A stretch of DNA of 64,000 bases, from positions 930,001 through 994,000 of the forward strand of contig JANJGN010000146.1 of NCBI GenBank assembly GCA_026770705.1, given 5' to 3'. Position numbers and translations under genes: made by a program. Shown here one piece after another: positions 33,031 through 58,304 of the stretch. The DNA comes from Isurus oxyrinchus. Its lineage: Eukaryota. Under the pieces are notes generated by a model. That model was not told where the DNA came from. It did no database searches and was given only the letters and a program-made list of their open reading frames with translations. Numbering within the stretch: the stretch's first letter is position 1; every line of letters starts with the position of its first letter.

Positions 33031-33941
33031 TCATCTTTTAAATAATTTAACAAGCAGGTTCAGTGGGAATTTCACACCATTCTTTAACTCTTCTCTGAAT
33101 TTACTCTGGGTCCCTACATAAATAAACGGATTGATGCAAGAATTCAGGAGCTGAAGCATACGTGCGCTTTCCTCCATAAGAAAATTTGATTCGTTGAAAT
33201 TGGTAGAGTCTGCATAGCTGAGATTCGCAATTCGGACATAGAGGAAGTTTATAAGTCTTAACAAATGTAACAGGATGAAACTGCCCGAGATACAGAAGAG
33301 CAAAACCATGGATTTCCTTCTCTTCTGCATCTCTGGATCACTTTGATTCTCTCCATTGCTCTGGATCCGGAGTCTCCTGCGGGCTCGACTGGCCGCTACA
33401 ATGTGTCTGATGGTCAGAGCATTGAGCAGTAAAATAAGGAAGAAGGAGAGGCAAAGGGTTAAAACGGCGATTATGCTTTCATAAGCGACCCATTCAGGTG
33501 CCGTATAAAATATTGATTTTGAATTGCATTGCCAGGGTATATTGTCAATTATAAAGGCAGGCTCACACATAAAATACAAGGGAATGCTTTTAACGCAGTT
33601 AAGTACAGAGACAGTTCCTATCACCACAGCCGCCATTTTCTCAGTGCAATATTTAATTTTCAGCTTCTGGCAGCAAATGGCTACAAATCGGTCAAAGGTG
33701 AAAGCCACTGTTACCCAGACAGAAGAATCGATGACTCCATAATTTAGCACAAGTCTGAGGCTGAAGACCGGAGTGATGGCCAGGAGACTGAACGGGAAAT
33801 AAATACCTATAATCCGGTTTAATATCACAACTGTGATCCCGACAAGAAGATCCGTCACGGCCATGGACATCAAGTAGTAAGTAATACATTTGGAGAGACC
33901 GCATCTTCCTCGAGTCAGTATCACAATCACGACCAGATTAG
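33031..33941 (-). CDS. GPR139-like GPCR gene 3, exon 2 (spliced product 326 aa)
   Basis: Acceptor gtcacag|CT AAT CTG. Motifs SMAVTDLL, FTFDRFVAICCQKLK, DPEMQKRRKS, NPFIY. 911 nt, the same length as gene 2 exon 2. Confidence 0.94.
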
Positions 33942-35187
33942 CTGTGACAGCGAAACGCAGCCAGCGAATAGCCAATTTTGAGAAAGAAATTTAGAACATA
34001 AAATGTTGGAAATTCTCAGTCAGGCAGCAGTTGAAAAGAGAGGAACAAGTTAGCATGTCAGAAAGATGATCTGGAGGAAAATATCCTAAAACACAGCAAT
34101 CTGTTCTGTACTGTTAGCAACACTAAGGGCTAACTCAAGGTGAGCATTGAACATCCTGCATTGTGACCCTGAAATACAGTCAATGTTGTTCTCATTCAAC
34201 GTTTAGAGACGGGAAAATATAACAATACTCTGAAACATTGGAAAATCGAAGGTTAACAAATACATTATAGAGCTTGAAAAAAGTTCAGCAAAAAAAAAAC
34301 TACTACTTAACTGAAAAGTAGATGAAGGAGATGTGATGCATCTGAGTTGTAACAATTAGAAGTTAAAGGAACAAGGCTTCACAGCCACGAGTAAAGCTAA
34401 TCATGCTTACTATGGCTCAGTTTACAGCAATCTCACTTTTTAGTCAAAAGGTTTAGCGTTCAAGCCCAACTGTTGGACTTCAGCAACATTGCACTGCCGG
34501 ATATGCTACATTTCAGCTAAAACAAAAGACTGAGGACCGGTAGTGAATACAAAATCTTACTTAAGAAATTGCTGTTATTCACATTCCAGCGCAAGGAGCA
34601 ATATATGCACATGGCAAAGTGAGGTAATTCAACAGCTGTGTCAATAACACCATAGAGCTACATTTACAGCGTGATAAATCAGCCATGGTGACAGTGTCAA
34701 TAATACAATTGATTTACATTGCACTGTGATATTAGTGTGCTAAATACTTCGCCCACATTAATAATGACAATAACAACATCTAATTATGTTTAGACTGAGA
34801 GGCGGCACTGCTAAGTTGGGAGAAAAGATTTAGTTAAAGAGATGAAACGGCATTGGTGAAGCAAACATAGTAATCCCTGAAATGGAAGTAAGTATAGTGG
34901 CAATGGGAAGAAACTGTTCTCGTGAAGGGGAGAAATTGTAGCCTTAAAGTGGAGAAAAGAGACCAGTAATGACCAGTAATATTGCAAGGAAAGGGAAGGT
35001 TTAATCTCATTTAAAAGAAGAATGCACCAAACGTGGAGATAAGGATACTGCAAAAAAGGGAAAACATTATAAAAAAACAAATTATCCTGTTAATGGGGTG
35101 AACCATAGAGAAGCAGTACAGCTAAATTAAAGAAGTGATAGAGTGAAAAATGATTCTGGTAACTGGTAACTAACCCTAATACTTTAC

Positions 35188-35257
35188 CTGGAATACCGAT
35201 AGCTGCAAGAACGGGATAGTAAATGGCGAACACCAGACCTTTTGGTATCCCATGCAT
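35188..35257 (-). CDS. GPR139-like GPCR gene 3, exon 1
   Basis: 70-nt phase-1 exon MHGIPKGLVFAIYYPVLAAIGIP G|gtaaag. An alternative in-frame ATG lies at 35264-35266. Confidence 0.92.
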
Positions 35258-35307
35258 TTCTCTCATAAGCTCCAAGTGCGCTCTGTGCTACACCGAAAGA
35301 CTTTTAG

Positions 35308-35369
35308 ATTTATACATGATGTCGGACTCTAGGGAGACAATGAGAAGGTTTGGCTTTTTACATTAATTA
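35308..35369 (-). promoter_or_regulatory. Gene 3 proximal promoter module HD-18-HD-2-O/E-11-TATA
   Basis: Minus strand: TAATTAAT (35362-69), 18 nt, TCATTG (35338-43), tc, TCCCTAGAGT (35326-35), 11 nt, TATAAAT (35308-14). Confidence 0.7.
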
Positions 35370-35649
35370 CACTAACTGAAAAAAAAACATTTTAGTGCAG
35401 CTGCTGCCACGCTCACGTTTATATTTTTGATGGAATGGAATCTGTTTTCAAGTACATTGGCGCGACAGGAGAGTACGGTCTAAGTTGCATTTTTTCCTAA
35501 AATTTAAATAACAAGCCAAATAAGCCATTGTAATTGTGAATGTGAGCACTGTGCACGAGCATCCATGGCTTTAAACCCCGCAGGAAAACATTACAAAGTT
35601 CTCACCCTTGATCATTTTTCAGCCCGTGTGTACACGGATCACGTGTAAT

Positions 35650-37150
35650 GTGGCTCCCTTTCCCTTCTGCAATGAGGAACCAATCAGTAGCCATCCATCA
35701 TCAGCCTCTCTGCCTGCTTGGATGTCAACTCACGACGAAAAGTGTCTCAATTAACTCTGTAAATGAAACACCAATGCTATGGGAATTGGCTTGTGTCCAA
35801 TTTCTGTTTGGCTTTTGGATGGATTTGTAGCAGAATTATTGATCCAGTCCCATTCAAGCACCTCCATCACACTTTTGCCTGGTATATTCATGACCAGATC
35901 AGTATTGATCTCGTTCAACCCCCAAACTGGAAAATGAGGTTACGTTTGCTTTGGAATGTAACCCTTCCCATGCCCTTACTTGCTCCATGTTTGAAATTTA
36001 TATTTTCTTCTGCCACTTTGATGTGGACACATCAGAGGGAATTGGCTATGGCCCAATATTCAACAGAAGCTCACGAACAACCAGCTATCTTGAATACACA
36101 TCCATGCACATCGTTTACTGGAAAGGAACTTTTCTGTTCTCTCAGAATCTCAGTTTCTGCTGAATATGTTCGATTATCCCTTCTAGCTTTCTCCAATAGA
36201 GCATGCAATTACTTCAGCCGAGTATTTCCAGCGCACCGTGGTTGACAGAACACAGCGCCGTGCATGTATCATGTCTCACACTTCTGCTTTCACACCTTCT
36301 CCCCCTCCAAGATCCACAATAGGCTTCTCCTTGCCCTTGCCTACCATTCCACACACCTCCAGTATCATTTGGTCCACCTCTGCATTTTCAAACTCATCCG
36401 GCATGTTGTCACTGCCCAATATGCCCAACTCACTTCTACTATTTAACATTGAGAATGGGTCTTTGCTCCACTCCGCACTTGTCTCCTCCAAAGTCAAACC
36501 AACCCTTCCTTTTCCGAAGAACGTTCCCATGCACGCAATGAACATGCAACGCCAGCTCCTGTCTCCATGCCCTTCTCTCTGTCCTACGTCCCAAACAATG
36601 CTTCTAAATGGAAAATCGATTTGTTTGAACTTCTGTCCATTGAGTATACCCTGTTCGCTGCTCAATATGCCGTCTGCTCTACATTCTGGAGGTTAAATGT
36701 AGATTGGTGATAATTTCTCAGGTACATCCATTCGGTCCACAAGTGTGATCTTCTGGTCACTTGTCACCCTAATTATCTGTTCCATTCTCACTTTGACATG
36801 ACTGTCATTGACCCCTCCTACTGCTCCAAGGAAATGGAACCTGTGCTCCAGGAGTAAAATCTCATATTTCCTTAAGGCACTTTCTAGGCTTTTGGATTTT
36901 CCATAAATTTCAACAATCGTGATCACACCCACTGCATTTTTCTTCCTTCTTTGCTCTTTGTTATTGCGTTGGGAAAACATCTCTTGATTTTGATTCTGTT
37001 ATAAACAGTTTGCCATCTTTTAGACATTCCTCTTCTGCTTTTCCTTGTTCCATTTTGACTTCCACCATCACTGCTTTTGTCATTTGATTTCTCCTGTTTT
37101 CCCATTTACCAGAAGCATCTCCTTTTGAACCTTTTTCCCCCAAAACCGTT
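35650..37150 (+). mobile_element. Probable decayed DIRS/Ngaro (tyrosine-recombinase) retrotransposon
   Basis: Fragments in order resemble DIRS RT/RNase H (CLLGCQL; ICSRIIDP..F; W..RLLWN; VDTSEGIGYGPIF like TDAS..G.GA.F; NYFSR), followed by a YR-like N-terminus (LAYHSTHLQY). Judged by eye and heavily degenerate. Confidence 0.5.
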
Positions 37151-38479
37151 TTTTGCCTCTACACTTACATTAAAACTGTTCCATCTGTAACTTTTGACTG
37201 ATCTGATGAAAGGTCACATGCTGCCGGATATCTTGAGTATTTCCATCGTTTCCTGTTTAATTCCATTTAGGGTATTTATATTCAGTGTAGAAATGTGCAG
37301 CTCGGCACGGTTATATTCACAGTGCACACGCCTGGTTTGGCACGGTTACTTCCATTGTGGACTAGTTCAATTCAGTTAGTGTAGCCATGTCAATCCCGGC
37401 AATAACGAAAGTGCACAGGTGTGTGAATTTACATTTTGTGTGGCAAGATCCAGCTCAGGACGTGTGTGCTTCGTGCTTTCAGTCTAAGCTCAGTCCACTC
37501 ACATTCAGAGAAGACAACCTCCTGTTGAGCATGATTAAATTAATGATGGAGCGCTCCAAATCAACATGGTTATATACCATGTAGAAAGTCCTGTTCAGCT
37601 CGTTAGCAATCACTGTTTAGTGGAAAACCAGTTTAGGGGATTATCACGCTGGTGTGACTGTCCAGTTCAGTAAATTGCATTCACTGCATTCAGGTTAAAT
37701 TGTGCACATCTCCACTCAGTACGAACAGGCCAATTTCTATCCTGTTACACTAAATGTACATGGACGACTTTTTGCCCGATTATTGTCAACTTTGTCCGGT
37801 GGAACACAACTACGTACAATGTGCACAGCCCCGGCTCTGAACACTTTCTTTCTTGCAGTGGAAAATTTCACTTCAGCGTGATTACATTCCATATAGAATA
37901 ATCAATTTCATTACTGCTGTATTCGATGGAGACAGGACTGGCCGAGCATGGTTATGTTTCGTGTAGATTTATGAAAGTCTGCTCGGTGCTAATAAATGTG
38001 TACAAGGACATTTGCATTCAGACTGGACTGGTTTAGTTCTGCATTCTTACTTTTAATTTGAGCTTCTGTGGTTCACTGTGGTGGACAGTCCCAATTGATC
38101 ACTGTGAACCTTTTAATTTCCCAGCAGCTATGCTTCGTGTGCAGATGTCTTGATCAGTGAGGTTACATTCAATTTGCGTAATTGCAGTTCTGGAGCATGA
38201 TTTTCAGTGCAAGACTGATCTCGGCCGGAGAGATTTTATTCATTGTGATTTTCCACGACAAAATCTAGGTCTATTGTTACTGATAAAGGAAGGTTCATAG
38301 GCAAAAGTACCAGGGGATGAGGAGGTTCTGGAGACTTTGGAATTGTCTTCTCCAGAAAACAAGAGACGGCAGGGGCAATAAATATATTCAAGGCATAGTT
38401 AGACAAATTATTGATCGACAAGAGATCCGATGGTTACTCAGTCTGGCAGGAAAACGGAGTTAAAGCCAGGATTACATCA

Positions 38480-39350
38480 GTCATGAACTCCGATGGGTAT
38501 TACACAGCGTTGACAACAAAATGCATCTTAGGAGAATTGAATGGAGCAGTTAACAGCAGCAACAGAGTTAAAAGTGCTCTTCATAACAGTTAATCGATTG
38601 CAACTATTTGATAAATTTACGAATAAACATGTGGAGGGTAAACAAAAATATGGAAAAATACATACCACTATCATTTATAGTTTCACGCCAATTAGAAAAT
38701 ATGCTGATCTGTAATGGTTAAGCTCAAATCGCCACAAAACAACACCCTCCCACAAATTATATTCCTTCTCCCACAGTTTGCTCTTTCAGTTATCCAACAA
38801 CAACCCTTCGCAATGTCCTCTTCTTAACCAAAATATTTACTGTATCACATGGCTTATTTTTGGCAGCACTTTGGATACAAAACTTACTGTTGCTTCCTTT
38901 TGAGCCTTCTAAATACGGTGAAAAGCTGAGACCCAAATACAAATCGTGCGAATCAGCTGTCACCCCTGTCAATTGAACTGTATTCACATTACCGATCAAC
39001 AAATTAAATGAGCTTTGTACATACCACAGCCATCGCGAGTTAAATTTATGTCGATATCAATTTAAATTAACATCTAGGCATGTAAAATAAATGACCTGTT
39101 TAACTAAGAAATTCTGGTTTTAATGACATTATTGAAGTAACAATTAAACTACATTGTGCAGCATTTGTATCATTACCAAAACGTCCGTCAACACAAGACA
39201 CAGAAATCGCGGACACGCATAGAACCATCTTGAATGTTTTGCTGTTGGAGGACAGCCAAACATCCGGAGAAGCTAGACAGTAAACATCTGACCCTCATGC
39301 TTCACAGTTGAACAAACATTGAAAAGACCTAATTCCGGGAAAAAAAACGT
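38480..39350 (+). repeat. ~870-bp direct duplication, copy 1
   Basis: Colinear with 40355-41240, e.g. ccactatcatttatagtttcacgc and ttggatacaaaacttactgttgcttc. Confidence 0.92.
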
Positions 39351-40354
39351 ATAATTCAGATTCAGAATGTTTCCGTTTCGTATTTTGAGTGGCTCAGGAA
39401 ACTGACTGGAAAATAAACAGCCGTAAACCGGCTTAATACCAGTGTAATGATAATTACTTGGAGATCTGTCACCGCCATGGACTCTGCGTATCTGGAAAGA
39501 CCACATCTTCCTCGGGAACGGATCACGATAGTCAACAAGTTAGCTGTAAGGGAGAGAGAGCGAGAGAGAGAGAGAGGAGAGACAAGGGAAGAATTAGTGC
39601 TGAATCTCCCAGCTACAACGTCCGTTTGGCGGGAGAATGGTATGGCACATGGACCATCAATACTTCATTCAACGCTGGAACTGATTACTTTGCCAATGTA
39701 TTAATGCTGGTCCATTTTTTATTTATATTGTCGCAGATGAAGTGGAAGTCGGAATATAAAATGACACAAAACACTACTTTCCGACTGATGTAAATTTTAT
39801 GTAATCTAGAAGTAGAAGGAATTGATCTTCATTAAATTGACAAAAGGACAACCTGAGAATGGCATAAAAATACAGATAAAAGTTCAGTACATTTATTCAT
39901 TTATAAATACAGTAAATGATAACATTATGAAACGTTAAACCGCTATAACAATGAAAGCAATCGAATGACAGGACATAAGATATGGGTAATAACGAATTCC
40001 TAATAAATATCAGAAGGAACCAAGGTACGATCAAAAAGAAAATTTGGACTTTGCCCCTGTGGAAACAAGTCAAAGCGCATCAAAGGCTTTTTTGCAGTTC
40101 AGTGATTGCAGTAGTGGAAGATCAGGTCTCGCAGCAGTAGTGTGGATTTTCAACTGATAAAACAGCAAGGCCTTGGCTTAGAGCCTCGTCAGAAGGACGA
40201 CAGAATATACAGTGCTGGACAATCTCAGGGGCATGAAGCTCGGCTACGGACACGAGATCGGAAGTAGGGATCAAACCCAGGGCTTTCCGAATGATCACTG
40301 AGGTTTCAAAATTTAGTTGAGCGAAATAAAGTGGCTATGAGCATAATGAATTCC

Positions 40355-42059: not shown

Positions 42060-42376
42060 TGTACAGCACAGAAGTAGGTGGCAGTGTCTGTGAGACTCAA
42101 GGCTGAGATGGTCAGGGAGTTGCTTTTCAACAAACTTCGAATGACGGCTCTAAAGTCATTGTTTGCCGACACCATTAACAGCAGCTTTGGGCTCTGGTTC
42201 GGAGACTGAACTTACCAATATATCACAGAGAATGGGATGGTTTTGCAGCAGTGTATCAACATCGTTTTCTGTTCACCCGGATTCTGTAATGGATAAATTT
42301 GTATAACATCTTCTTTACATTTAACACACAAAGTGATCACTAGACCAAAGCCACCAGCTCTAATCTGTCCCAACAT
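42060..42376 (-). pseudogene. TCR alpha-type V segment pseudogene, leader apparently contiguous with V
   Basis: MLGQIRAGGFGLVITLCVKC-KEDVIQ..LIHC..IYW*VQSPNQSPKLLL..SNSLTISALSLTDTATYFCAV. In-frame TAA at 42212-42214, and a short CDR2/D-strand region. Confidence 0.88.
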
Positions 42377-45300
42377 GTATCTCAGAACATAGGAGCAGCT
42401 TTCAACTCTACAGCCCTGCTCCATATTCAATTAGTTATCATTTCGTCTGATGCATAAATTTATTTGCTTTCCTTAGCCCAATACCCCATGATGTAATTGT
42501 GCTTAGCTAAGGAACATCTTGGAAATATAGCGAAAGAAATACAAAAAACTGTGTTTGTGTGTGTAGTCATTCATTCTTGTTTGAGTTAATAAAGAGGTAA
42601 GATACCCCTTGAGAAAATAGAGCCTAAATGTGGCAGAGGACAAGGGAGTCTGCTGGGACTGTTGCAGGATGAGCAGCGACAGCGTTTATCAAGGCAATTG
42701 GGCACATAAGAAGAAAACTGGGTTTCATTTCTAAAGGGAGGAAAGCTGAAAATCAGAAAAGTTGCTTTTCTGATACACTGAAGTTCGTTAGGTCACACGT
42801 GAATCTCTGTCCTAAGTTCTAGTTTCTATTTCGATGCATTTGTTTTTAATCTCATGACCCGAATTTTGAGATCATACTGGCCAGATACCATGCCAACGAT
42901 TTGTCTCGTATATCTAGAAATGAATAAAGTGGGTTTTGCCCCTATAATAGTCTTTGGGTTACAGAAGTATTCGAGAAAACATATATAAGGAAAACGTCTC
43001 TACTTGTGGGAGATACTAGAAGTAGTAGCATACGTATAAGATAGATGAAGAGTTGTACGGGAATTCTCTTACTTAGCGTAATCAGATGCACAGACTTGTT
43101 GGGCTGAGCACCCTGTTTCTGCGCTGCATATCCTGTCTAACTACTTAACGCTTCGAATGGAGTCAAGAGCTTCGGATTCACAACCTTCTCCATGGAAGAA
43201 ATTCAGTTTTCCCTCAAAAATAGCCTACCTCTAATTTTAAGATTATATACGCTCGTCCTTTATTCTCCTATAAGAAGATTTTTTTTTTCTGTATCTACCC
43301 TGTCAAACAGTTAAACAGTAAACCACCTCTAACAGGTCTCCTTTCAAGACTCGATGGTCAATGGAATACAACGGACAATTCTGCAACCCTTCCCCATAAT
43401 TGCATATCATATCTCCTGCATCCTGCTGGTGAATCTGTGCTGTATTAACTAGGAAGCAAATTAATGTTGCCTTTGGTGAGGCGCAGAGAGCTGAATGCAT
43501 TCATGCAGATACCGTCTGACCAGACAACTGAAGTCTAACTTTTGCTGCTCCATGTCCCAGTTACCTTCTATAAGGACTCACTTTGTTTTCGCCATTCTGA
43601 TGGTATTTTCTGTCCCTCTACTCGCTTTCAATGATTGTAAAAGTGGACACTTAAGCCTCTTTAAATTCCTTCCTTTCTCCACGTTTAGGTTTTGGAGGTT
43701 CAGGGTGAAAGCCCTCACACCTGCACACAGTAAACTCAATCTGCCACATTGTATCCATTCATTTATTCCGTCAACTTCCTCATACAGCCACATACATAAT
43801 TTAATTAAATATGCAATCTTGGGTGTATAATTCACTTTCATTTACTCCAGGTCATTAATAATGTTCGTAATAACTATGCTTACATATTTGGAGGGACAAA
43901 ATGTAATAAAATCTTGCACATTCTGTCAGTATTGTTTTACACATTTAAATACTCACATGTTATAAAACTGACTGGAATGGACACTAATATCAATCTGAAA
44001 TGTTCTTGCATCATGTGCATTGAAAGGGCCTAGATTCTGCTCAAAGTATTGTTGCAGAATTAGAGAAATGTAAGAGGGACTAAAGGATAGGCTGGACCTG
44101 CTTCATTGATTCATACATCCGAAAATCAAACGCACCGACAGCTTCTCCCGCATGTTACTTCGCCATTGCTGGTCACGAGGGTAAGTTCCATCATTTAGGA
44201 AAGGAAGTAATACTCAGTGCAGCGCCGCCCTCAAATACAGCCCCGAGGTTAATGCTGGCGGGTTCAGCAGCCGAGGTTTTATACATTAGCGTGACAGAAA
44301 TTCGACCCGCATCACAATAAGAGACTCGTGTTTCCCTTAAAATCAATAATATACATTATTTCAATGATAATTTTCTCATTGATCTGCTCACACTGCAGGA
44401 ACAATTGATCAGGACCGTCTGATTTCTAAGCGTTCGGCTTTTAAAAAAAAATGTCTTTATTTGAAATATCACCGAGTGGATATAGGATATTTTCGTACAT
44501 TTTGGAAAACGCACGTGAAATTTTGAATGTTGATCTGCTTTATATTAAATGAAGTTTCCAGAAGATATCTTATAGTATTGTTCACCATCTCTGGGGTATT
44601 AAAAACAAATTGTGTTTGAGACACTTTTTACAGCACTCAGTGTGACAATAGCAAGAAGTGCCTGCCATGCTTAAGCTATTACGAGTGACGATCCACAGAT
44701 GAGTCAACATTAGCACATTCTTCCTAACGCTGATTAACAGGCAGTGAATTGTTGGTCCGGGGAACAAAGCAGACATCGGGCCCCATTTAAAGTCAACTAT
44801 TATCTGCTTCCATTTTTAAAACTGCAAACACTTACATTTTGTTTGTTATTATTATTGGTTAGAATGCAAACCAGTTAGGACTTTTAAAGCAACTTTTTTT
44901 GGTTTAGCTTTTCAACCGGGCCGTATCTCTGCAGTGATGAGTGTTCGCAAGCACAAATCCAAAGAGCTACACGGACAATCATGGTCCGGAGGTGTATTTA
45001 CATAGTTTTATATTTTAATTACGTGAATAAGTCATAGAAATGTTCACGCATTAATGACAGAAAAATGTCTCATATTTAACATTAAATTAGCTCGCCTTCG
45101 GCACTGAGCATGGAGACGGAGTCTTGTTGCATGTAACTTATGTGCCATTTGGGAAGCCCAGGACGATTTGTTTGTCCTCTTTCTCAACACAAGCAGGTGT
45201 ACCTCCAGTTGCTCGTTGTCCAGCTCAGGCTCTTTGAGCGTGAAGAAACGCTCAGGCCACATGGAAGGCTGAGAATCATCGAGACCGCACATTAGGATAA

Positions 45301-47447
45301 TTTCAATTGGTTTTCGGGCCATAATATCTAGCTTTGCAGATTATTGGAAGTTATGCAATCCACTAGTGACGTGGGAAATAATTGACGCATTCTGGTGATA
45401 CAGACACTCACATAACAGGTAACACTTATCTCGGAGAAGTATTAAATTCTCTATTTTGGTAGGTATAGTGAGGAAAGGTAATATGGATTAAATACGCGAT
45501 TTTATCAGGGGGCAAGAGCTCCTGGAGTTATATGAAACCAAAATTTGTAGGTCACAGGACGAACAGAGATGGCTGCTCAGGATCATAGATTTCCTAATAG
45601 AGGAATGATTTTCCTCTAAGCCTTTGTCAAATACTGGGTGCTAGTCCAGACTTAGGGTTTTTGGTGTAATTAATATGTTACGTGCTAACTAAGAGATCGG
45701 CCACTTAGAACTGAGGTCGCAATAAATGTTCACACTCAGATATTGTGAATCATTGGAAATCTCGACCGCAAATGGACTGTATGTTTATTCAAGACAGATA
45801 TCGAGAAATCAGACAATCAAATAAATGTTGCAAGGAATTTCAGTCAATAATTTTAGTCTGTATTCTAGCGAGTGACAAAGGAGCCTGGAGTGTCAGAATA
45901 ACCTAATCTTGCTTCTGTATCTTATCTATTTTATCCATATGAATAGGATAGAAAAAATATTAATTCTAACATTCTCTGCCTGTTTTCGTCATCTAGAATA
46001 GAACAGAGATGGTAATGTGTGGGATCTGTTTCGTCCTGATGCCTTTGTAAGACATGTGACAAATATGGCAGACATTTCCTTTTATCGATGTGTTGTAATT
46101 TTAGTGAATGGTCTCCCTTTATGTTAAATTTATGTTATCTGACAATTTAATAAGTTCAAGGCCATATGTTTGCATTCATAGTCATCACCCATACATAGAA
46201 AAATAATATTGATAACAATTTCTCATATAGATTTTCAAAGGACTTTCTGCAGGTTTAAAATGTAATACCTATAAAATGTAATACCTATGAAGGCAGATAT
46301 AGGATAAACAAACTACGTATGAAAACATATTTCATGATGTTTTAACATAATGCAATTTAAATTTATGGGTTTCAACATTATTGCCATTGTTTGTGATGCA
46401 TCATTAAATTCGATTTTCCACCTGGCTGAAATCCTTCTCCACTTGTTTCTGAGTGTTTTAATGAACAGAAGCGCATCATTAACAATGTTAACGGTATGAA
46501 TTTTAGAACAGCACTGAAATTAGTCATCGGTTTGGCACTGATTTTTTTTTCTGAGTTCAGGTGTAGTTTCTACGCTTTGAAAGTTTGAAGTTGCAGAAGG
46601 ATTTTATTCATCATTTGCATTTAATAGAGTGTTTCGGGCAACACAAGTTTCTGGGGAATTCCTATTACAGCTCCCTGGTTGAAGAGGACCGGCTGATGCG
46701 TTCCTGCCCTAACATCAACCCTTTGACCATTACTTTCTCTCTTATTACATGTTACGTGTTCCAGACATTACTTCACCAGGTTTAGCTGCGAAAAAAAACA
46801 GTTTTAGCAAGGATCACTCGAAAAACTTTGCTCTTGGCTGAACTGCCAATCTAATCATTCAACGGACGACAATTACAGCGCCAAACAGGGACTCCCTGCA
46901 TTTCTTATGTCACCTGCCTCGATGGAGGCATTTTCTGAAGTTATACCGTATGGACCTGAAGGTTACCACATACCCAAGAGAGATGAAGACAAGCTCATTC
47001 CTGACCTATCTACAGTAAGCAAAGTGACGTCCCAAGCAAATAAATCTGACCTTGATTGAACTGATCTCCCTTCACCGCTTGGAAATGCTTTCAGTTAAAC
47101 TATGCGTTACGCACTGCAACTCACGTCATCAACAAAGTTTTTTTTAAAAATCACTATAATGTAAACCCAGTCCTTGCTGAAGTCTTTCTTTGCTATTTCA
47201 CTAGAGATGCACCAGAGAAATATGACTTTCATGTTTGGATCGATAACTTGGAAACTAAATCGAACTCAATCCACTCTATAGGCCGTGTTGATACATTTGG
47301 GGCTTTGGTACAGTTTGCAAATATTTATCTGAACCGCTACATTATATTTGTCCTGTGACTCTGACAGCACACCGTAGTGTTGTTCTTCTCACTACCAGGC
47401 TCCACAGTCGCAATGAGAGCTTACCTCCAAGTCACAAGGGCCCATCA

Positions 47448-47486
47448 AGTTATTGTACAAGTGTCGGGCTGGTTCTAATTGCTGTG
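47448..47486 (-). other. 23-RSS
   Basis: CACAGCA (47480-86), 23 nt, ACAATAACT (47448-56). Confidence 0.85.
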
Positions 47487-47797
47487 AGCGTCAAGACGCA
47501 GTAATACATAGGCTGCGTCAGAGAGCTGCAGTTTGGAGAATTTTAAGGTAATGATGGTATTCGTAGTGACCAGTACAGACGAGAAAAGACTTCGAGCAGA
47601 ATGTGCTCTCATTTGGCAACCAGCCGAAACCCTGCGAAGTAGAATTTGTGATTCTTTGCCCGGGTATTGCAGGACCCAGAATAAGCTGAAGGAACCTTTG
47701 GTACTGAAATAGATGCAGTCTGAAATTGTAATGCCTCCTTTTGTCCAAACCACTGTCAGGAGGCGTTGTGTCACAGAGATTTCCTGAGTCAGGCCAG
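47487..47797 (-). pseudogene. TCR alpha/delta-type V segment pseudogene
   Basis: Acceptor taaag|CT GGC. EISVTQ..SDCIY..LFWVLQYPGKESQILLRR..LQLSDAA, then a +1 insertion before ATG TAT TAC TGC (YYC), so the second Cys is out of frame. Same family as the V at 50516. Confidence 0.88.
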
Positions 47798-49084
47798 CTT
47801 TAAATGGAAAATGCAAAAGCTATCCCATTTATAAAGTGCTGTTACGTTTGGTTCAAAATTACTACCAAGAATACTTATCCGTGATAAGTGCTCCAAATAC
47901 GGCACCGAAAAAGAGTAAGTGCACTGCCGCTTTCATTAACACAGTAACCTATAGAAACTGGCACAAATTGACCTCTGAAAGTAGCCGCATTGAGGGTCGA
48001 TGTTCCCTTCTTGTGTCCCCAGTGATATGTTGTAATGTTCAATCTTTCGGGTAAAACACGGCTACGAGTCTCCAGGCAATGAGAGAGGAAATGTTACAAT
48101 CGCACAAGCTGCAAGCATCAAAAATCCAAACAGGATAACGATTTTATTCAGAGGGAAGGAAGCAATATATTTTTATAGTATCTAATTTAGGTTATTCGCT
48201 CTCGACGTATTTGTGAACTTGTTGCAATCACTAACAGCTGGACATTACGATTGAATTTCACCAAATGCATTGAAGTTCACCAACGTCTTGTATATAATGT
48301 AGCGTGTCACAGAACGTGGCATAAGTCAGTAACTTGCACGGGATATTTTGTAAATATTGAACCTTTTTTTTTTGTTTGAGTTCCAGTAAAGGCACTAGAA
48401 TATTAGAGTCCTGCACGAAGTTCACAAAAAATAAACAAGGGACGTATAAATAAAAGGTTTCCCCTGTGGACAATTTTGTTACATTATTAGTTACCAACTG
48501 CTCATCTAAACGGTACTTTGTATTTTACTTCCTTCGGTGACATTAACAAGTGCAATAATTTGCATAGTGAATGAAATACTAACTATATCGCTTTTGCCAT
48601 AGCAAAGCTTCCATGAGACCTGAAACACACGTGGGCATTTTTAGCCGTTGAGGTTATGTTAAAACCACCTCGTGAGGTGACGCTTCTCGCCACTGCTGTA
48701 AGCTGGGAGCGACAGTTGCGGTACAAGGTGGGACAGAACGAGACAGGTGCACTTCCGGCTCTAATGGCGGCTCCTTATCTCCAACTGAGTGGTGACAGAA
48801 GAAAAAGGCTGAATGGAAAGTAGGGCAATTCTATGAGACAAAATATTCAAAGAAAATGATTAAACATTTGAAAACGCTGGTGACACTACATGTTCACTCT
48901 CCAAGTGCATTTCTGGGGAACTGATTATAGAATTTATTTATTTTTTTAAATAAAGGACATGAATTAGGATCGGAACAGACAAGGGGGTGGGGAATGTTTT
49001 CATGGAAAACATGAAACTAAGGCTGCTCTTTACATACTTTACGTGTAAATTTACGCCATGCAACATCACCTCTTAAGAGCAGAC

Positions 49085-49445
49085 AATGGCTTAGTAGCAA
49101 TGTCACTAGAGTAATTATTCAGACACTCAGGCTCATCTTTGGAGGATGCCTATTCAAATCCCACCACAGAAAGCTGGTAAAATTAACTTAAAATCTGAAT
49201 TTATAATTCATTTCAATGATCCTGTCTGTGAATTATCAGTGATTGTCACAAAACCCATGTGGTTCACTGATATCCTTCAGGGAAGGAAATCTGTCGCCCT
49301 TACCTGGTCTGGCCTCTATGTGACTACAGATTGATTGTTAACTGCCCTTTGATGAAACACCCTAACAAGCCATTCAGCTCAGTGACATTTAGGGATGGAC
49401 AGTTTATGCAGGTCTTGTCAGCGACGCCAACATCCTATGAAAGAA
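49085..49445 (+). mobile_element. tRNA-derived SINE with LINE-like 3' tail
   Basis: A-box-like TGGCTTAGTAG, B-box-like TTCAAATCCC. The 3' end (tagggatgg..gtcagcgacgccaacatcc) resembles the tail of the local LINE family. Confidence 0.75.
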
Positions 49446-50476
49446 CTATAAGAGATTTAGGAAGCACGTCAGGAAACTTTAGCCCAGCAAACCCCCAAAA
49501 AGCAGCAATGTGATCCTGAAGATGTCACCCCTTTTTATTATATTGATTGAGGATAGATGTTCACCAACAGATCAGGCAGATCTTTAATTTCCTCCCTTCC
49601 ATCCTACTCACCTTCCTAACTTCACCCTTCCTCGGCCCTTCCTGATTTCGTTCTTCCATTCCTCCCATCGAAATTCTTCAATATGTAATGTGAAGTTTTC
49701 ACTGTCACAACTGAATGTTGTAGCCCACAACTGATACACCACAACTGTTCTGTTATTGAGCAGATTCTGTGTGACTTTAACACTGTCTATTCCTGCACAC
49801 GCAGGTATACCGCGGAGTACCAAGTTATAGACTTGTGAATATCAAATGCAATTTGCCATTTTATACAATAGATATTGATGTTGAATCTGTAGACCGTGTA
49901 TTCGGTGTCAAAAGGTGGGATGAGCCACATTTGCAATAAACAAAATCAAAAATAAAAGTACATCTAAAAACCTCAGCATTTCTGACAGCAACAGCGGGGA
50001 GCAACACAGTTATCGTTTGGAGTCCGCATAACTCTTCAACAGAACGTGCCTGCTGTCCGAATAAGCGTATGCAAATGGTTGTAGTTTCTTCATCTTTGCC
50101 CCTTCCCAATGTTGAGAACACATTCCACCATTAAAGTCATGTTCAGACGGAGTCTGCCGCTCTGCCAGCATGAAGTATTAATTCAGGGCACTGGGAGAGC
50201 TGCAATGCCCTTCTTGAAATATGCCAATGAATCATTTATGTGTAAAGGAGGAAGCAAACGGGGCTACAGTACAATACATTCGAAAGCTCCCACAGTTCTA
50301 CACCGAAATGCCAGTCTACATTAAAAACGCAATCTCCAGACTGGGACTTAAAATAACATTTTCTGATTCTGAGGCCAGAGTGCCACCACTGATCCACAAA
50401 TCTGTAAAGGAATAACAGCAGTGCGACGGCTGATTGAAGCAGGGAATTCAGAGAATTCACAACAACTGGAGCTGAT

Positions 50477-50515
50477 AGTTTTTGTACCAGTGGTAAGGAT
50501 TTATGTAACGTGGTG
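50477..50515 (-). other. 23-RSS with non-canonical heptamer
   Basis: CACCACG (50509-15), 23 nt, ACAAAAACT (50477-85). Confidence 0.75.
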
Positions 50516-50823
50516 CTTCATAGCCGTGCAGTAATACACGGCTGAGTCAGAGAGCTGGGTGTCTGTGATGTTCAAAGGGATGTTTGTGTTGCTCCTATCC
50601 TGTACGGCTGAAAAGCGCTTTGCAAAAGCTGGTGCATTCTCTTCATTCCCAGCCGTGTGTCTGAGCAGCACATACTGAAGGCCTTTTCCCGAGTACTGTA
50701 CATACCAGAATAGGTAAGCAGTTGTGTATGTCGCTGGGTAGATACATGACAACACCGCAGTATCTCCTTCACTCACTGCTACAATTGAGGGTGTTTGGGA
50801 AAGTCTCTCCTGTTGGGCGCATT
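50516..50823 (-). CDS. TCR alpha/delta-type V segment, V exon (open)
   Basis: Acceptor ttttccag|AA TGC. QERLSQTPSIVAVSEGDTAVLSCIY..YLFWYVQYSGKGLQYVL..RFSA..LNITDTQLSDSAVYYCTAMK, with both canonical Cys and the Trp present. Confidence 0.93.
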
Positions 50824-51292
50824 CTGGAAAACAATAACAGAATGTTATCAATGCAACTTTTAGATTTTTTTCATTCGGACAAAATAATCTTTCCAATGCA
50901 CACGCACACGCGCGCACACACGGGCTCAGGTTAAATCATTCCCTTCAATACAACGGTTGACTGCATTTCGAGTGTGAACGACAACAACAAAAACAGGGAG
51001 CTTCAGCGATTTCACCCCTCAGTTAACTGATCCCAGGCCATCATCGGTGTAAATTGCTTCTGGCAGTGTTCAGCCAAGGCTACCGTTTCTGCAGGAAATA
51101 GAGAAGCCCTTCTCCGGCCCGCTGAGACAATGACAGGTCAGCTTGTGACTAATTTAGATAATGTACGAACACTCACTGACCAGTGAGCGAAGTCGAGGAA
51201 GCTGACCTCATCAATGGAGTGAAGAAAAATTGGAGGAAAAATAACAATACAGTTAACAAAATAAAAGCGTTACAATCGCATGAAATACTTAC

Positions 51293-51353
51293 TTGGTTGA
51301 ACATTTATGAGGAAAAGGAACACTTTGACGACACACTGGCGATCAGAAGACAT
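51293..51353 (-). CDS. Putative leader exon of the V segment at 50516-50823
   Basis: 61-nt phase-1 exon MSSDRQCVVKVFLFLINVQP A|gtaagt, splicing in frame to the V exon. Confidence 0.65.
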
Positions 51354-51469
51354 GTTGAAGTTGTATCCTGTGCCAGAATTTCATGCTGTACGGAAGTATG
51401 TGATGTATATTCAAGACATTTGTTACATCCTACCACCACGTTTAGCTGCACATGAGTATGACTCCGAGA

Positions 51470-51525
51470 TTTATAAACAACACAAAAATTGCAAATGGAA
51501 GTTTCCTCAGTTTGATGTCTCCCAG
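51470..51525 (-). promoter_or_regulatory. Possible V-gene promoter
   Basis: Minus strand: AGACATCA (CRE/decamer-like), GAGGAAACTTCC (Ets-like) and TTTATAAA, about 120-170 nt upstream of the leader ATG. Confidence 0.35.
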
Positions 51526-51859: not shown

Positions 51860-52075
51860 AGGTCTCAGCTTATCACCCTGCACTCATCAGGAAACTTGCA
51901 AGAATAAAAATACATGGGAGGGGGGAGCACAATTTATACTGTATGTGAGGAGAATGATGATTGGTTGGCAAGTGGCATTTTCCTGAATAATGCACCACCT
52001 ATGGCGAAGGACAGTTAACTGCCAAGAATTGTTTGAAATTTAAGCCAGACAGCTTGACCCTGATAGGTTCAGGCT
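51860..52075 (-). mobile_element. Second PLE-type terminal repeat remnant
   Basis: Minus strand cctgatgagtgcagg (degenerate hammerhead core) within an interspersed-repeat-like segment. Confidence 0.4.
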
Positions 52076-55000
52076 GACTCGTTTCTCATGATGATGAAGA
52101 AGAAGATGAAGATGATATTGCTGATCTAACTGGTTTGCTCTCCGGAGGTCCGGCAAAGACTGTGTATGTCGAATGCCTCCCTCCCCGCCCCCACCATTCC
52201 GCACCCCCCCCCCAACCCCGCCACCACAGCGCCCCCCTCCCCTCCTTTCCGGCTCCGTGCTGTAATGAGACTGGTGAATCTGGTTGCACCAATCTATGGC
52301 AGAGCTACCCAGCCCCAGTTAGGTGGACCAAAACTGAGCACAGTTCTCCAAATGTGTTGTTAGCAAAATCTTATATATTTGCAGCAAAGCTTCGTTACAC
52401 TCCTTATCCAAACCTCTTGCGACGGCTTCACAAACACTGTTGATTAGTCTTTGTTATTAACCAGTTTGAACTGAGAAAAAAAAACATAAAGACGTTGTTC
52501 TCCTGCATATTTTTGGCTTTTCCCTTTCTCTCTGTACGTATTTAATTCGAAGACTGACAGAGAGCTATAGATACAAAATGGCAACTGAAAAAAACACTAT
52601 GTTCCTCCGAGTACTGAATTAAAAGTGAGGGATGGATTTAGTCTTCATTGTATTGAATCGGAGCTAATCCATTGCACAGCTATGAATTCCATGTCAGAGC
52701 AATAATCGATCAAGAAACAACCCTGGCCTAATTAAGCAGAGCAAGAGCGAGAATATTCATCACACAGAGAGATCAAGGCGAGCAAATGAGAAAAAAAAGA
52801 GCTAAGGATAGAGACAGAGTCAAATAGACAGAGATAAATTGAAGGAGAGTCCTAGACAAAGGAAAGGGAAACAGGCATAGAAACTGACAATTAATGGAAA
52901 GAAGCTGTACATTCATTTCACAATTCCATCTCATTATTCATTCATAGTTACTGGGAGACAGCACCTTCTGAAATTATATAAAGTCCTTCAATAGTTCAGA
53001 GTGTCCCAGGTTGCTTAACGACAAGGGCGTATCTAGTGAAGTATAGTCACTCCTTTAATCTAGTGATAGAGTTAGAGGAAAATACAGAATCTGTTTAAAT
53101 AACATCTTAAGAAAGAGATATAAACGTGATTTTTTCTTTCCATCTATTTACGATGCTTGATGAAGATCCAGGAAATGTAAAGGTCTTTTGAATTTTCAAC
53201 TTCTGCTCTGTTAAAATTTCACTCATACAGCATGAAATTCACAGAAATTTGGAACAAAGAATCAGGCCTCTAAACATTCTCCAATCAATAAGATGTTTAA
53301 TTTTTTTATGTTCTAAAAGCGCAAGGAGAAGTTAAGGAAGTTAAACAATTATAATGAAATCCTTTGAATGATTATAACTGCTGCAAGCTGGAGGGGTCGT
53401 TGGATACCCGCTTCTTAGTTTATTGTCAGAGAAACCAACGGATCTATGATCAAAGGTAATTAACAGCTCTCAGTTACTCTCAGGCAGCATAAATCATGCT
53501 TCCTGCTCCAGTGAATCTTGTCATCTGCTACTTGATGACATAGTTTAACCGTAGACCGCAAAACGTTAAACGAAAACTTATGTGTCACATTCCCACCTCC
53601 TTGCATAGGAAGAACCAGATTAAAATAACCTGGCATCAAGGCGGAGATAAACAGACTCTTGGTCAAAAAAAAATGTTGAAGATCTGAACTATAATAACAC
53701 AGGCAGGCATGTGCACAGATACTTGTCAAAGAGGCTACACAAACAAACACACACACGTACACACATAGGCGCGCTTGCACACACGCAAACACGCACGTAC
53801 CCACACAACCACATGCATTTCGACATCAACACGTATGTATCTGTATATATTTTATGTCGTTTTAAATGGAAATAGAGGCGGACAAACTGCAAGAACATTG
53901 GCTGCTATTTTGACTTATTTTATTAATGCACAGTCTATCAAAATGGAGAACCCAACAACACTGTCAGGGTGCAAGGAGGAGGGGAGTAAACATTGCTCAT
54001 ACACCCGTGATACCACCACCACCGTGTATCGCTAGTGGTGGCGCTGCAGTTGTTCCCTCAAACAGTTCAGGTTCATATTCACTTAACAAACGTTTACATT
54101 CAAGCAGTTACCAAGACCATAAGGATCCCCAAACACAGGCTTTTATGCCTAACATTTCAGAAGGCACACACAACAGTATTAAGTTGATTTTTTATATACC
54201 GCTTGGTGATGAATATCAAGGTCACATGCTCAACGACTATCTATTACTCTTTGGTCCAGTGACTGATCAGTTACCAGTCACATCTGTGTCCACAATTAGC
54301 TACACGTGACGGCTGGCTAAGTTAGTTAAATAGAAGATACCAGTACAGGCATGAACAAGGAGCAATGGATGGTGAGGGAAATCCTCAATTTACATAATTT
54401 AAAAATGCTTGCAAATCTCCAGACTCTGAACAGCATCTTTCAACTCATGTCACTCAAAAATAAATAGAGTAAACTGGATAGATTCTAGAATAATTTTAAT
54501 TCTAAACACCAATCGTTACTCTTCCAGGGGCTTGAAACTATTTTCGTGTTTGCAAATTTGATGCCAATTCAGTTTCTTTCTGGAAGCTATTGTAATATTT
54601 TCGATAAGCAACCAATTGAGGTCCGAAATTGCTCTAAGACTTCGATAGCTCAAACTATGTGACACAATAGTGACCTAACAGCACAGGAAGGACTTCAAAT
54701 TCCCATGAGTCAATTTTCAAAACGTTCTATATCCTCTTTTTCTAGAGTCATATAATGATGTAAATTATAGATCAGGCATTTTTTTCTCTCTAAGAGATAT
54801 TCTGAAAAAATATATCTATATATTCCAGTGCCCTCCCCCCATTACTCAAGGACGTTCGTGTCTCATTGTGAAGGGCAACTATGCACAGCCCATCTCAGAG
54901 CTGGAACAGGTGCATGATATCCCTTTCGCAGTGAAATTTGCTGGTTGAAATCCCACAGAAACGCCAAACAGATATTTGACCTCTTAACAATGTGAATACT

Positions 55001-55527
55001 CTAGTGCATAAGCAGAAAGTAACGCCTGGCCACAGCCCGGACTGTTGCATGTCCACTCTTTGATATCGCTGTGTCAATGAGTCACCAAGTGAAATGGAAG
55101 ATTGAAGTCATTGGGAGTGGGTAACAGCTACTCACCGGTGTGGTTGTATGTATGAGACAGTATTGAGGAGGGGCAGTAGATCTCTTCTTGCTCTTACTGT
55201 ACCTGAATGCAATTATGCCTTCATTGGTGGAACGTGTGAGTGAACTTGGATCTAAATGGTGATTAAGCAATTAAGCCGCATCGCTTGGTCTGCATAGAGC
55301 CACTAGAACCTCAGCAGGTTGGACAGTAGGTGAATTCTCTCCTGCACACATGGCAGGCTAATTACACAGCCCAGGTGTGGACTTATAGGTTTCTCAGCAG
55401 GTTATGAATTCTGAACCCATTTCCAAAGCAAAATGGACTCAAATTAAACTCTCAATTCTCCATCACGCTATAGAGAGTGCAGTTTATGATGAAAGAGATG
55501 GGGGTTTTACCAATGGCCACTAGGTCA

Positions 55528-56420
55528 AAGGGAGGAGTTTTGTCCTCATCGGGCGGACACAGAGAGGTGGACAGGAGCTTTCCGGAACGCGACTGCCAGC
55601 CCGTGATCAGGGCCGAAAAGCGATTTCACGCTGGCTGGTCAATTAAGGGCCACCCCGCGTGAAACTCAGCTGGTGACAGGTTGGAGGGGCCGAGCGGGAA
55701 TGGGAGCCTCTCGGCCGGCGGGTCCAATGGCGATCCGGCCGCCAGTTTGAAAACGGCCCAGGCAGCCCCAGGAAGGCTGCTGGAGAATGACGTCTGTCTG
55801 CTGTTGCAAAGATAGACTCCTGTGCGGCAGCAAACACCAGGCGGGAGGGCATGTTGTTTGGGCATTCGGCCCCCAGTTATACTGAGGTGTGCCTCGCTGA
55901 CCTCATGGAGGGCGTGGCTGCCAGAAGGGACACCCTTGTCCGAAGAGATGGAAGGAGGACGCCTTCCAAACCTCACAAAGAAGCATTGGGAGGAAGTGGC
56001 AGCCTCGGTGAACAGCCATAATGCACACCTGGGTGCAGTGCTAGAGGCGTTTGATTGACCTGCTACACTCGGAAAAGGTGATTGCTGTGTTGGCATCAGT
56101 CAGTGTGTGGAATTGTTTTGAACTAGCCGCCCTCCCCATGCAGTTCAGCGTGTCAGAACCTGAGTCCTAACTGTCAATCACTCCGGCTCTGGCCAAGTTG
56201 CTGAGCTTTGGCTGCTTTGACTGAGTGCCATGCGAATCACCGGCCATGATATGGATGTGGCCTGCAAGGCGCCCCAATGCTGGGGTTCGTCAGGCTGTAA
56301 TGGTGCTGCATGTTGGATGTGGACTAATGAATGCTCCTCTGTGCTTTCAGGAGAAGGCAGCCCGTAACAACATTGAGAGGCCACGGACTGGCGGAGCACC
56401 CCCACACCTTTCAACATCGC
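55528..56420 (+). mobile_element. Harbinger/PIF transposon remnant (Myb/SANT-like gene relic)
   Basis: APSYTEVCLADLMEGVAARRDTL..TKKHWEEVAASVNS..TWVQC*RR..DL..K|gt, intron, then ttcag|EKAARNNIERPRTGGAPP. Frameshifted. Confidence 0.78.
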
Positions 56421-58055
56421 TGTCTCTGGCAATGTTGCAGCCTCCAGCCAGGTCTCCCCTTGCTGTGATCATCTCCGACTATGGAGGGTTGTATCTATAA
56501 ATCATTCCTCCTCTGCTCCCTTAGCTTGGCCATACCAGACATTTAAATCAGGGTTGAAAAAACCCTGAAGATGACAAAAGTTTTAATTCTTTAAGCAAAC
56601 ACTCAGAATTTGAACCGAATTCTGATGACAAATACGTTTCCTTCACTCCACCTTGTTCTAAAATCTCAACTGAGCTTCAGTGATCCTCAAGTGATACATA
56701 AGGTCTGTTACCACTTAGAAATGCAATTTAACTACCGGTTAGCTCCAAAACTTACCTTAATCTTGGGAAACTACGTAACAAGCTTTTTATTTACTGGAAT
56801 AACTTCAAAGGTCCTGCCTCCTTGTCCTTAGCTAATTAAAAGCGCCCACATTATCATGATCTTGTAATTTTAGCTGTGAGCCTCTTAAGTCAACATGGCT
56901 CCAAACTTTTAAGAATAATAAACTTCAAAGTTGGTTAAATTGCATTTAATGTACGGCTGCTTTTACCAGTTTTTGCCACCAGATATCCCCACTGCCTACA
57001 GCTAAATCTTTAATTCCTAAAACTAACAATTGGATTGAAAATCAGCTGAATTATGACACTAGCCATGGGTAACAGAAGGTGAATTTTTCACCGCAGTATC
57101 AGGTACAAATTTACTATTAAACTGGTATACCAGTTCCAAAGTCACAGTTAGACCGGGGCATCAGGTACATGTTCACGTTCAAATTGGGGTATCCGGTACA
57201 AAGCCACTGTTAGACTGAATTATCAGTTAGAATAGCACTGATAGACTGGAATGTCATGTACATGGTCAATGTAAGATCGGGATATCAGTTACAACTTCAC
57301 TGTTGTACTCGATTATCAGTTACGGTGAAGTTTCGGGTGCAAGGCGAATAGGATACCATATTTCAATTCCATGGTCACCGTTTGACAACAGTATCTGTAG
57401 GAAGCCCACTGATGGACCTATGCATAATTCAAATGAGCACTGTATGACCAGGTACTAGTTGCATGGTCACTGTAAGTCCGTGGTGTCAGGTACAAAGTCA
57501 TTTTAGATTGTGTAGTGTCATTCACATGGACACTAATATTCCATGGATTTCAATTACAGGGTTTAGTTACAACGGGGCATCATTTTCCAGGTCAGCTTTA
57601 AAGTTAAACTCTCATCATTTCCATGGTAATTGTTGATCCATAGCATCAGTTTTACGTTTACTGTTAAACCAAGCAGTTTCAAATCATCAGTCTATAATTT
57701 CCCTTTCTGATCACTAGACAATGATCAACTATGCATCCTTTTGGACAGTTACTGCTTCTGTCCATACTCTGGCACTTGTGTTCACCCCCTGAGAAATTAA
57801 TTGAAACCATGAAATTGTTTGGCAGCATTTTATCTCCGGAATAATCAAAGCTCTGGATTTGAGTCTGTTTTTCTTTTCTTATCTGTGCTGCAAGCCTGCA
57901 GAATTCCATAACCTGTTTATCACAAAAGTGGCTGACGTCACGTGCTTGCTTTGAATAAATTATCTTGACAGGAATGCCATGTAGTTTTTAGTATATTTTT
58001 TCCATACAAAGTGATGGGATGAAAGGGTTAAGGCATCTTGTTTGTTAAGTGACTG

Positions 58056-58117
58056 TAATTAATGCCAGCCAGTGTATTGTTTAATTGAATCACCAGGACT
58101 CTCCTCCGCCTATATCT
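58056..58117 (+). promoter_or_regulatory. Gene 4 proximal promoter module HD-18-HD-2-O/E-11-TATA
   Basis: TAATTAAT (58056-63), 18 nt, TAATTG (58082-87), aa, TCACCAGGAC (58090-99), 11 nt, TATATCT (58111-17). Upstream: CRE+E-box TGACGTCACGTG (57933-44) and CCCCCTGAGAAATTAATTG (57785-57803). Confidence 0.65.
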
Positions 58118-58207
58118 AGGCAATGTTTTCAATGTGTATATCAGTGTTTGACAGAGTGTGGTCGCCAGTATAAACAGCGATCATTGGATCTCACAGCAAA
58201 TGAGATC

Positions 58208-58304
58208 ATGTTCTTTGAAATTCCAACTGAACTTCGGATTGTCTGGGTGATTTATGATTTGCAAAGGATTTACTATCCGCTCCTCGCTGCTGTTGGCATT
58301 CCTG
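58208..58304 (+). CDS. GPR139-like GPCR gene 4, exon 1
   Basis: 97-nt phase-1 exon MFFEIPTELRIVWVIYDLQRIYYPLLAAVGIP G|gtgagt. Confidence 0.9.

Follow-up and report, generated by a model that had tools for sequence, protein, structure and literature searches.

GPR139-like receptor genes within the T-cell receptor alpha/delta V array of Isurus oxyrinchus and a probably stranded V cassette within a receptor array

A stretch of 64,000 nucleotides from the shark Isurus oxyrinchus (hereafter the window; positions 930,001–994,000 of contig JANJGN010000146.1, here C146, of the 4.98-Gb genome assembly GCA_026770705.1) contains five loci of a GPR139-like G-protein-coupled receptor (GPCR) family and three T-cell receptor (TCR) variable (V) segments of the alpha/delta type (TRA/TRD). 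The receptor family probably shares the neighborhood of the TRA/TRD locus and has been copied there in blocks together with V segments, and the V segments of the window are probably a stranded piece of an old V array that was amplified within a receptor array. It is proposed that two families evolving by birth and death would occupy one duplication-prone region, each being a passenger in the other's array.

The TRA/TRD locus proper is identified through its recombination signal sequences (RSSs). A perfect 12-spacer RSS pattern has 38 matches, as opposed to 4 for the reversed control; 10 of the 38 lie at 671–694 kb of contig C242, and none is found on C146, C38, or C42. This pattern led to the constant gene TRAC, which was not found by a search with Pfam DUF1968. 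C242 (814 kb) harbors the following joining (J) and constant (C) elements:

590–608 kb: seven J segments
617 kb: constant exon labeled TRDC, from its position and a 73% match to a basking-shark gene model
660–743 kb, in the fetched parts: 8 and 49 further J segments
749.5 kb: TRAC, the sole match in the genome

The TRAC exon matches a Carcharodon protein at 93% and catshark and smooth-hound proteins at 52–54%; two of the matched proteins are named TCR alpha chain-like. Neither J nor C was found in 204 kb of C146 around the window, and there is no TRAC on that contig. The earlier note had taken the window for the distal end of TRA; it is instead an amplified cassette in a GPCR-dense array. The flanking landmarks that the note had named fared unevenly: TRAJ, TRAC, and TRDC were located on C242, whereas METTL3 and DAD1 gave no link. 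METTL3-like exons lie on an 81-kb contig (C2225), and DAD1 has 28 matches on 15 contigs, none of them on C26 or C242 and none in C242:740–814 kb. Most are intronless, which suggests many retrocopies.

Contig C26 (40.3 Mb) bears GPCR matches at 0.6–12.5 Mb; its remaining part from 23.1 Mb onward is a dense V array. Over its length of about 17 Mb, V segments of either orientation follow one another every 4–6 kb, and blocks are duplicated at megabase offsets. Among the matches listed for 12 ten-kb samples from 13.5–23.0 Mb, there was no GPCR or V segment in any sample, and zinc-finger genes occur there. Between the GPCR-dense arm and the V array lies a long cluster of C2H2 zinc-finger genes (16–23 Mb), and a satellite-like repeat is found at 14.5 Mb.

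GPCR genes of one clade reside inside the V array. An intact family member at C26:40,313,743–40,314,654 has V segments on either side. With a resident GPCR as the query, 68 matches of at least 70% were obtained among the best 150 scored of 6335 candidates, and about 40 of these are free of stops with an open frame of at least 300 amino acids. Within the same scored set, 43 matches are on C26, all within 23.12–40.31 Mb; 22 are on the V-bearing contigs C140, C151, C152, C210, C242, and C301, and the remaining 3 are on small contigs. Contiguous maps show 55 V segments and three GPCRs (two intact) in 240 kb of C26, and 31 V segments and one intact GPCR in 200 kb of C242, a density of one GPCR per 80–200 kb in the two mapped stretches. 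From the GPCR on C242 (211,990–212,895; open frame of 312 amino acids), the distance is about 405 kb to TRDC and about 537 kb to TRAC. The interleaving of GPR139-like genes with TRA/TRD V segments that was described for the window therefore also exists in the real locus, on the very contig of TRDC, TRAJ, and TRAC. Because GPCRs occur along the full length of the V array, the proposal that they fill a distal niche equivalent to that of the mammalian olfactory receptors (ORs) is not supported. A provisional result that the main V array lacks GPCRs (25 V segments and no GPCR in 11 ten-kb pieces centered on V segments) was a sampling effect and is overturned by the maps of C26 and C242.

A midpoint-rooted tree of 40 rows, all of them shark family members, unites three resident genes in a 100/100 clade whose stem is long and which is nested within the family. 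For two pairs of resident genes, the synonymous divergence (dS) is 0.57 and 0.48, and the ratio of nonsynonymous to synonymous divergence (dN/dS) is 0.24 and 0.26. Offsets of 5.718–5.720 Mb and 1.853–1.854 Mb separate repeated occurrences of two V markers and likewise of two GPCR markers, which were thus duplicated together. Some of these co-duplicated blocks may be assembly duplicates because one pair of GPCR copies shows 100% identity across 174 amino acids. No orthologue of the resident clade was found among 32 public GPCRs (best 57–64%), a set that was retrieved with gene 3 of the window and hence constitutes no test, and the fetched public proteins include no fused V–GPCR gene model.

The horn shark Heterodontus has a gene model with two V domains that match main-array V segments at 71% and 64%, on a contig of 59,489,666 bases. 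The same size is given for the contig of 60 of the 120 listed GPCR relatives, sameness of the contig being judged from size, and the horn shark has relatives on four other large contigs as well. V segments and GPCR genes are probably linked at chromosome scale in the horn shark. Given this co-location and a dS of about 0.5 among resident genes, the V–GPCR neighborhood is probably old within sharks. No contig sharing of TRA and GPCRs was found in Carcharodon, two Scyliorhinus species, or Mustelus, which is uninformative, as 120 of 2057 relatives are listed and several contigs are small.

The resident clade might be kept by use in T cells, such that opening of the locus switches the genes on and V–J deletion leaves a different set in each clone. 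A distinct clade confined to the V array, with some 40 of 68 matches open and with purifying selection, would fit this explanation, but tandem duplication by itself should yield local clades, and selection also acts on the window-type copies found beyond the V array. Such use in T cells is regarded as very unlikely. If GPCR and V genes are instead passengers of each other, resident GPCRs situated between a V and a J would simply be deleted in T cells without consequence.

The window shows the reciprocal arrangement, in which V segments lie among receptors. Its features, numbered from its first base, are as follows:

833–1720, minus strand: GPCR gene 1, main exon; pseudogene with in-frame stops near the C-terminal end, longest frame 259 amino acids
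15816–18956, plus strand: GPCR gene 2, two exons (15816–15885 and 18046–18956); open frame, GT/AG sites
33031–35257, minus strand: GPCR gene 3, two exons (35257–35188 and 33941–33031); intact
39392–39547, minus strand: GPCR fragment, a relic of transmembrane segments 1 and 2 (TM1–TM2); 55% to gene 3 over 56 amino acids
42022–42059, minus strand: RSS of V1; CACAGTG, 22-base spacer, ACAAAAACG
42060–42320, minus strand: V1, TRA/TRD-type V pseudogene; in-frame stop, no AG acceptor
45347–51395, minus strand: 6-kb block of V2 and V3, present in all 30 cassette copies (blastn, block tree)
47448–47486, minus strand: RSS of V2; CACAGCA, 23-base spacer, ACAATAACT; four mismatches
47487–47790, minus strand: V2, TRA/TRD-type V pseudogene; frameshift ahead of the YYC motif
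50477–50515, minus strand: RSS of V3; CACCACG, 23-base spacer, ACAAAAACT; good nonamer
50516–50823, minus strand: V3 exon, intact TRA/TRD-type V; open frame, with both Cys, the Trp, and YYC present
51293–51353, minus strand: V3 leader exon; GT/AG splice sites, lacking in this copy 21 bases that the other 29 copies keep
58208–64000, plus strand: GPCR gene 4, exon 1 at 58208–58304 and exon 2 from 63572; leaves the window, open frame of 327 amino acids, to C146:994,509

The three V segments lie, as previously described, between gene 3 and gene 4, on the minus strand with ends near 42060, 47487, and 50516; the GPCR relic at 39392–39547 sits there too. A 23-type RSS had been assigned to all three; the spacer is 23 bases long in V2 and V3 and 22 bases long in V1. 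The paralogue of V1 on C26 has a perfect 23-RSS. The V3 heptamer differs from the consensus at three of seven positions. RSS-like matches as weak as the V2 and V3 signals occur at five further unrelated places in the window, so these signals count only through their position directly at the V ends. V3 matches Pfam V-set (E 2.3e-16); V2 has no Pfam match and is recognized by 36% identity to V3 and by its placement in the tree.

V1, V2, and V3 nest in different supported groups of main-array V segments (98/82, 99/96, and 96/91, respectively, in a tree of 75 rows and 94 columns with no TRB, TRG, or immunoglobulin outgroup named). Their identity to the nearest sampled main-array V is 33–47%, which rules out a recent transposition from the main array. 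Among public sequences, V3 comes closest to a V of gar (50%), all sampled main-array V segments being at or below 47%. A search of representative proteins gave no V3 orthologue (best single-domain identity 47%), and a search of longer proteins with V3 returned two multi-V gene models and nothing else.

V3 belongs to an amplified cassette. Among the best 150 scored of 1418 candidates, 30 matches to V3 at 87–100% amino acid identity are spread over 11 contigs (10 on C38, 8 on C42, 3 on C49, 2 on C131, and the rest on seven others); the next best are at 49% or less and lie mostly at C26:23–40 Mb. Gene 3 has 38 copies genome-wide at 89–100% amino acid identity, and the distance from gene 3 to V3 is 16.9–17.9 kb in the six cassette copies whose coordinates were checked. 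The most divergent copy, at C26:5.92–5.96 Mb, is collinear with 8.8–52.4 kb of the window at 80–88%, and three V segments lie there among eight GPCR loci in 110 kb. The 204 kb around the window contain 11 GPCR loci and three V segments, with long inverted duplications at 90–96% identity, those of 7–17 kb being at 92–96%. A pure assembly artefact is ruled out since the copies differ by up to 12% and 10 of them are on one scaffold, C38. Close copies of V1 number seven; in addition, 20 near-full and 6 truncated members of a related, dead family are present on the cassette contigs and on C326.

Several observations concern the cassette and its surroundings. The dead V1-related segment stands in tandem every 2–3 kb at C131:527–538 kb and C38:4.636–4.644 Mb, and a repeat element interrupts both members of this tandem family that were fetched. 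Positions 43729–45002 of the window have near-zero cover in the DNA contigs of a second organism and are missing from the C26 paralogue; they are probably an insertion in the clade of the window. On the large scaffold C20, paralogues of gene 3 and gene 4 (89–93%) are present at 75.9–78.2 Mb, and no V3 copy was found there. In the contigs of the second organism, V3 is covered at about 96%; between gene 3 and V3, all 30 of 30 bins have depth, although it falls almost to zero at 43.7–45.0 kb. Contiguity is not proven by these contigs.

The receptors and the V segments of the cassette differ in their selection. In the best 30 of the 38 gene 3 copies by protein score, 95 alleles are synonymous, 115 are nonsynonymous, and 3 are stops (dN/dS 0.37–0.51, p ≤2e-6). 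The 30 copies of V3 carry 16 synonymous, 46 nonsynonymous, and 3 stop alleles (dN/dS 0.9–1.4), and the difference between gene 3 and V3 is significant (Fisher p 0.004). The frameshift of V2 is common to 21 of 21 aligned copies. The GPCRs are under purifying selection, V3 has no signal of selection at the protein level, and V2 was dead before the amplification. Selection would thus act on the receptors and not on V1–V3.

A contrary explanation is that V3 is a working, amplified, and near-invariant TRA/TRD V, that the locus extends far out into the GPCR-dense array, and that V3 copies rearrange from there to the single J–C cluster, as the distal TRAV1 does from among the ORs in mammals. A number of points favor it or weigh against the reading of V3 as a stranded passenger. 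Fifteen of the 30 V3 copies keep the frame, Cys, Trp, YYC, and acceptor. Run X20, which is probably RNA, contains a 263-base contig (depth 3.1) in which the V3 leader is spliced to the V exon across a 469-base intron (50824–51292, GT..AG); it includes the 21 leader bases missing in the window and hence derives from another copy. V3 has 66 alleles, compared with 107 in the equally long dead V2 (p 0.002) and 0.35 per base in the flanks and non-coding sequence; its exon and RSS are less variable than V2 and the flanks, and its pairwise ratio of nonsynonymous to synonymous differences (pN/pS) is 0.60. The deficit sits in six deep copies (32 alleles against 57 in V2, p 0.01). V3 is more conserved than expected of a pure passenger. 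The gar V at 50% is nearer to V3 than any sampled main-array V, and the scaffold that bears the main V array, C26, also has one cassette copy. Relative to C26, the contigs C146, C38, C42, and C242 are unplaced, so a cis link to J and C is possible. The gene 3 copies were chosen by protein score, which biases their dN/dS downward. Finally, five pairs of cassette copies are less than 1% apart, and some of the near-identical copies may represent haplotypes assembled twice, which would inflate the counts.

Against a working V3, its heptamer is CACCACG or CACCATG in 30 of 30 copies, the share of synonymous alleles is at the neutral expectation with three stop alleles present, and the YYC motif is hit in 12 of 30 copies. 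Two recent clades show no deficit relative to V2 (28 vs 36 and 19 vs 17 alleles, V3 and V2, respectively). The deep-branch deficit affects both synonymous and nonsynonymous sites relative to V2 and the flanks, so it could stem from gene conversion or from constraint in the past. A distance of 17 Mb, including the zinc-finger gene cluster, separates the C26 copy from the V array, and the X20 contig ends inside the V, thereby showing splicing and neither rearrangement nor a junction. Apart from repeats, the same run has little more than a single 63-base piece on gene 3, and run X23 yielded no contig on the window; neither has any bearing on expression either way. A working V3 appears rather unlikely. 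It is highly improbable that both functional proposals hold, i.e., that the T cells of sharks possess another receptor set that varies somatically (about 40 intact GPCR genes in the V array, switched on with the locus and pruned per clone by V–J deletion) and also use V3 as a near-invariant chain from the receptor array. The cassette is better read as a stranded piece of an old V array, amplified with its receptor neighbors.

The shark receptors are not ORs. GPR139 is the best match among solved structures (PDB 7VUG, 9M42; E 8.7e-9 for gene 3 and 1.8e-13 for the family profile), followed by atlas clusters named GPR139, FMRFamide-receptor-like, and Srw-bearing. All 30 family members examined match Pfam 7tm_1, two of the 30 weakly match Srx, and none of the 30 matches the OR family 7tm_4; no OR is among the best 60 of 200 PDB matches for the family profile. 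ORs have a single coding exon, whereas shark GPCR genes 2, 3, and 4 have a short exon 1 and a long exon 2 separated by a phase-1 GT..AG intron in TM1. This two-exon layout accounts for the end coordinate 58304 in the earlier note. In the window, gene 2 matches 7tm_1 at E 1.4e-21, its exon 1 having been found by tblastn with the N-termini of shark relatives, and gene 1 aligns by tblastn with genes 2 and 3 at 44–45%, with stops.

The family is found genome-wide, with 7757 and 6191 first-look candidates for two queries, on C20, C23, C29, C33, C34, C40, and dozens of small contigs; it is therefore not specific to TRA/TRD, and one clade only is. There are 2057 public relatives at E ≤1e-20, mostly named by NCBI "probable G-protein coupled receptor 139". 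GPR139 and GPR142 are activated by L-Trp and L-Phe. The match of the shark family to these receptors is distant, and the family has thousands of candidates in this genome. Unplaced sets named GPR210 have been described near GPR139/142, and the word "shark" does not occur in the available part of that text (PMC6504862).

In mammals, ORs are found among the first TRAV genes of human (OR10G2, OR4E2), mouse (Olfr1507–1509), and sheep, and at the 5′ end of TRA in opossum, according to the available portions of PMC4574546 and PMC2275272. Both the mammalian and the shark arrangement place intact non-TCR class A GPCR genes between TRA/TRD V segments, with birth-and-death turnover of both families. Mammals have two or three ORs at the 5′ tip, whereas the shark has dozens of GPR139-like genes over a 17-Mb V array, co-duplicated with V segments; moreover, the shark receptors are two-exon non-OR genes, and V segments are also amplified into a separate GPCR-dense array.

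The earlier note had left a choice between ancient linkage and convergent co-location. Ancient linkage would mean that TRA/TRD already had a GPCR (chemoreceptor) cluster at its side in the ancestor of jawed vertebrates and has kept it since, with ORs and shark receptors as occupants of one inherited and functionally kept niche. The occurrence of ORs in several mammals, the TRAV and GPCR proteins on equal-sized contigs in Heterodontus, and the dS of the resident paralogues are in line with it. However, apart from belonging to class A, the shark receptors and the ORs are unrelated, the three true OR-family matches in the shark genome are on C11 and C4, the GPCR family is spread over the genome with the resident clade nested inside it, and no link was established for METTL3 or DAD1; chicken lacks OR synteny in the portion of PMC2275272 available. 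Ancient linkage is accordingly quite improbable. As the shark receptors are not ORs and true ORs are on other contigs, the likeness to the mammalian OR–TRAV interleaving is likely convergent, and co-location without common ancestry with the OR linkage fits better.

Scattered V exons are known from other settings. In the elasmobranch antigen-receptor complex (AgRC), V exons of the alpha/delta TCR type are located outside the translocon between immunoglobulin heavy chain (IgH) clusters in four sharks and rays, in the parts of PMC12227049 consulted (main text and two supplementary files), which do not mention GPCRs. The neighbors are IgH clusters in AgRC and GPCR genes in the cassette described here. 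TRMV-OR2 of opossum is an example of an orphon V (PMC2275272, in part); the cassette resembles orphons in having V segments with RSSs and no D, J, or C nearby. Unlike orphons, it has three V subgroups per block, is old (at most 47% identity to sampled main-array V segments), is amplified 30-fold, and includes one V that is still spliced. No published account of the shark GPR139-like expansion or of its presence in TRA/TRD was found in titles and the opening parts of abstracts; "GPR139" is absent from the available text of bioRxiv 10.1101/2025.06.08.657570 and PMC11979771.

Further antigen receptor elements were encountered. At C26:27.35 Mb, inside the V array and far from the J–C contig, an IgH-like V is present, and after it comes a D-like segment that has a perfect 12-RSS. 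A V that we take to be NAR-TCR-like, from resemblance and one protein match, recurs in the array with a supporting V, including at C242:167–231 kb and C26:40.16 Mb. C16:85.8–88.5 Mb contains 24 near-identical perfect 12-spacer RSSs in both orientations, about 50–300 kb apart, which are probably those of V segments of light-chain miniclusters. Three J segments with 12-RSSs at C5:196.8 Mb represent another TCR locus.

On the reading preferred here, blocks of V and GPCR genes would have been copied by unequal crossing-over. In the V array, GPCR genes would ride along under selection of their own, and in the GPCR-dense array, the old piece with three V subgroups would ride along and decay. For annotation, this is a warning that shark TRAV counts include amplified stranded cassettes. 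The results also point to a very large receptor family, of which no description was found in the literature searched. Since resident and non-resident clades of one family coexist, the reason for sharing a locus becomes testable through expression in thymus, T cells, and nose. With this shark, a large GPCR family is seen inside a TCR alpha/delta locus for a second time, apparently independently of the mammalian case and in numbers far beyond the two or three ORs found there.

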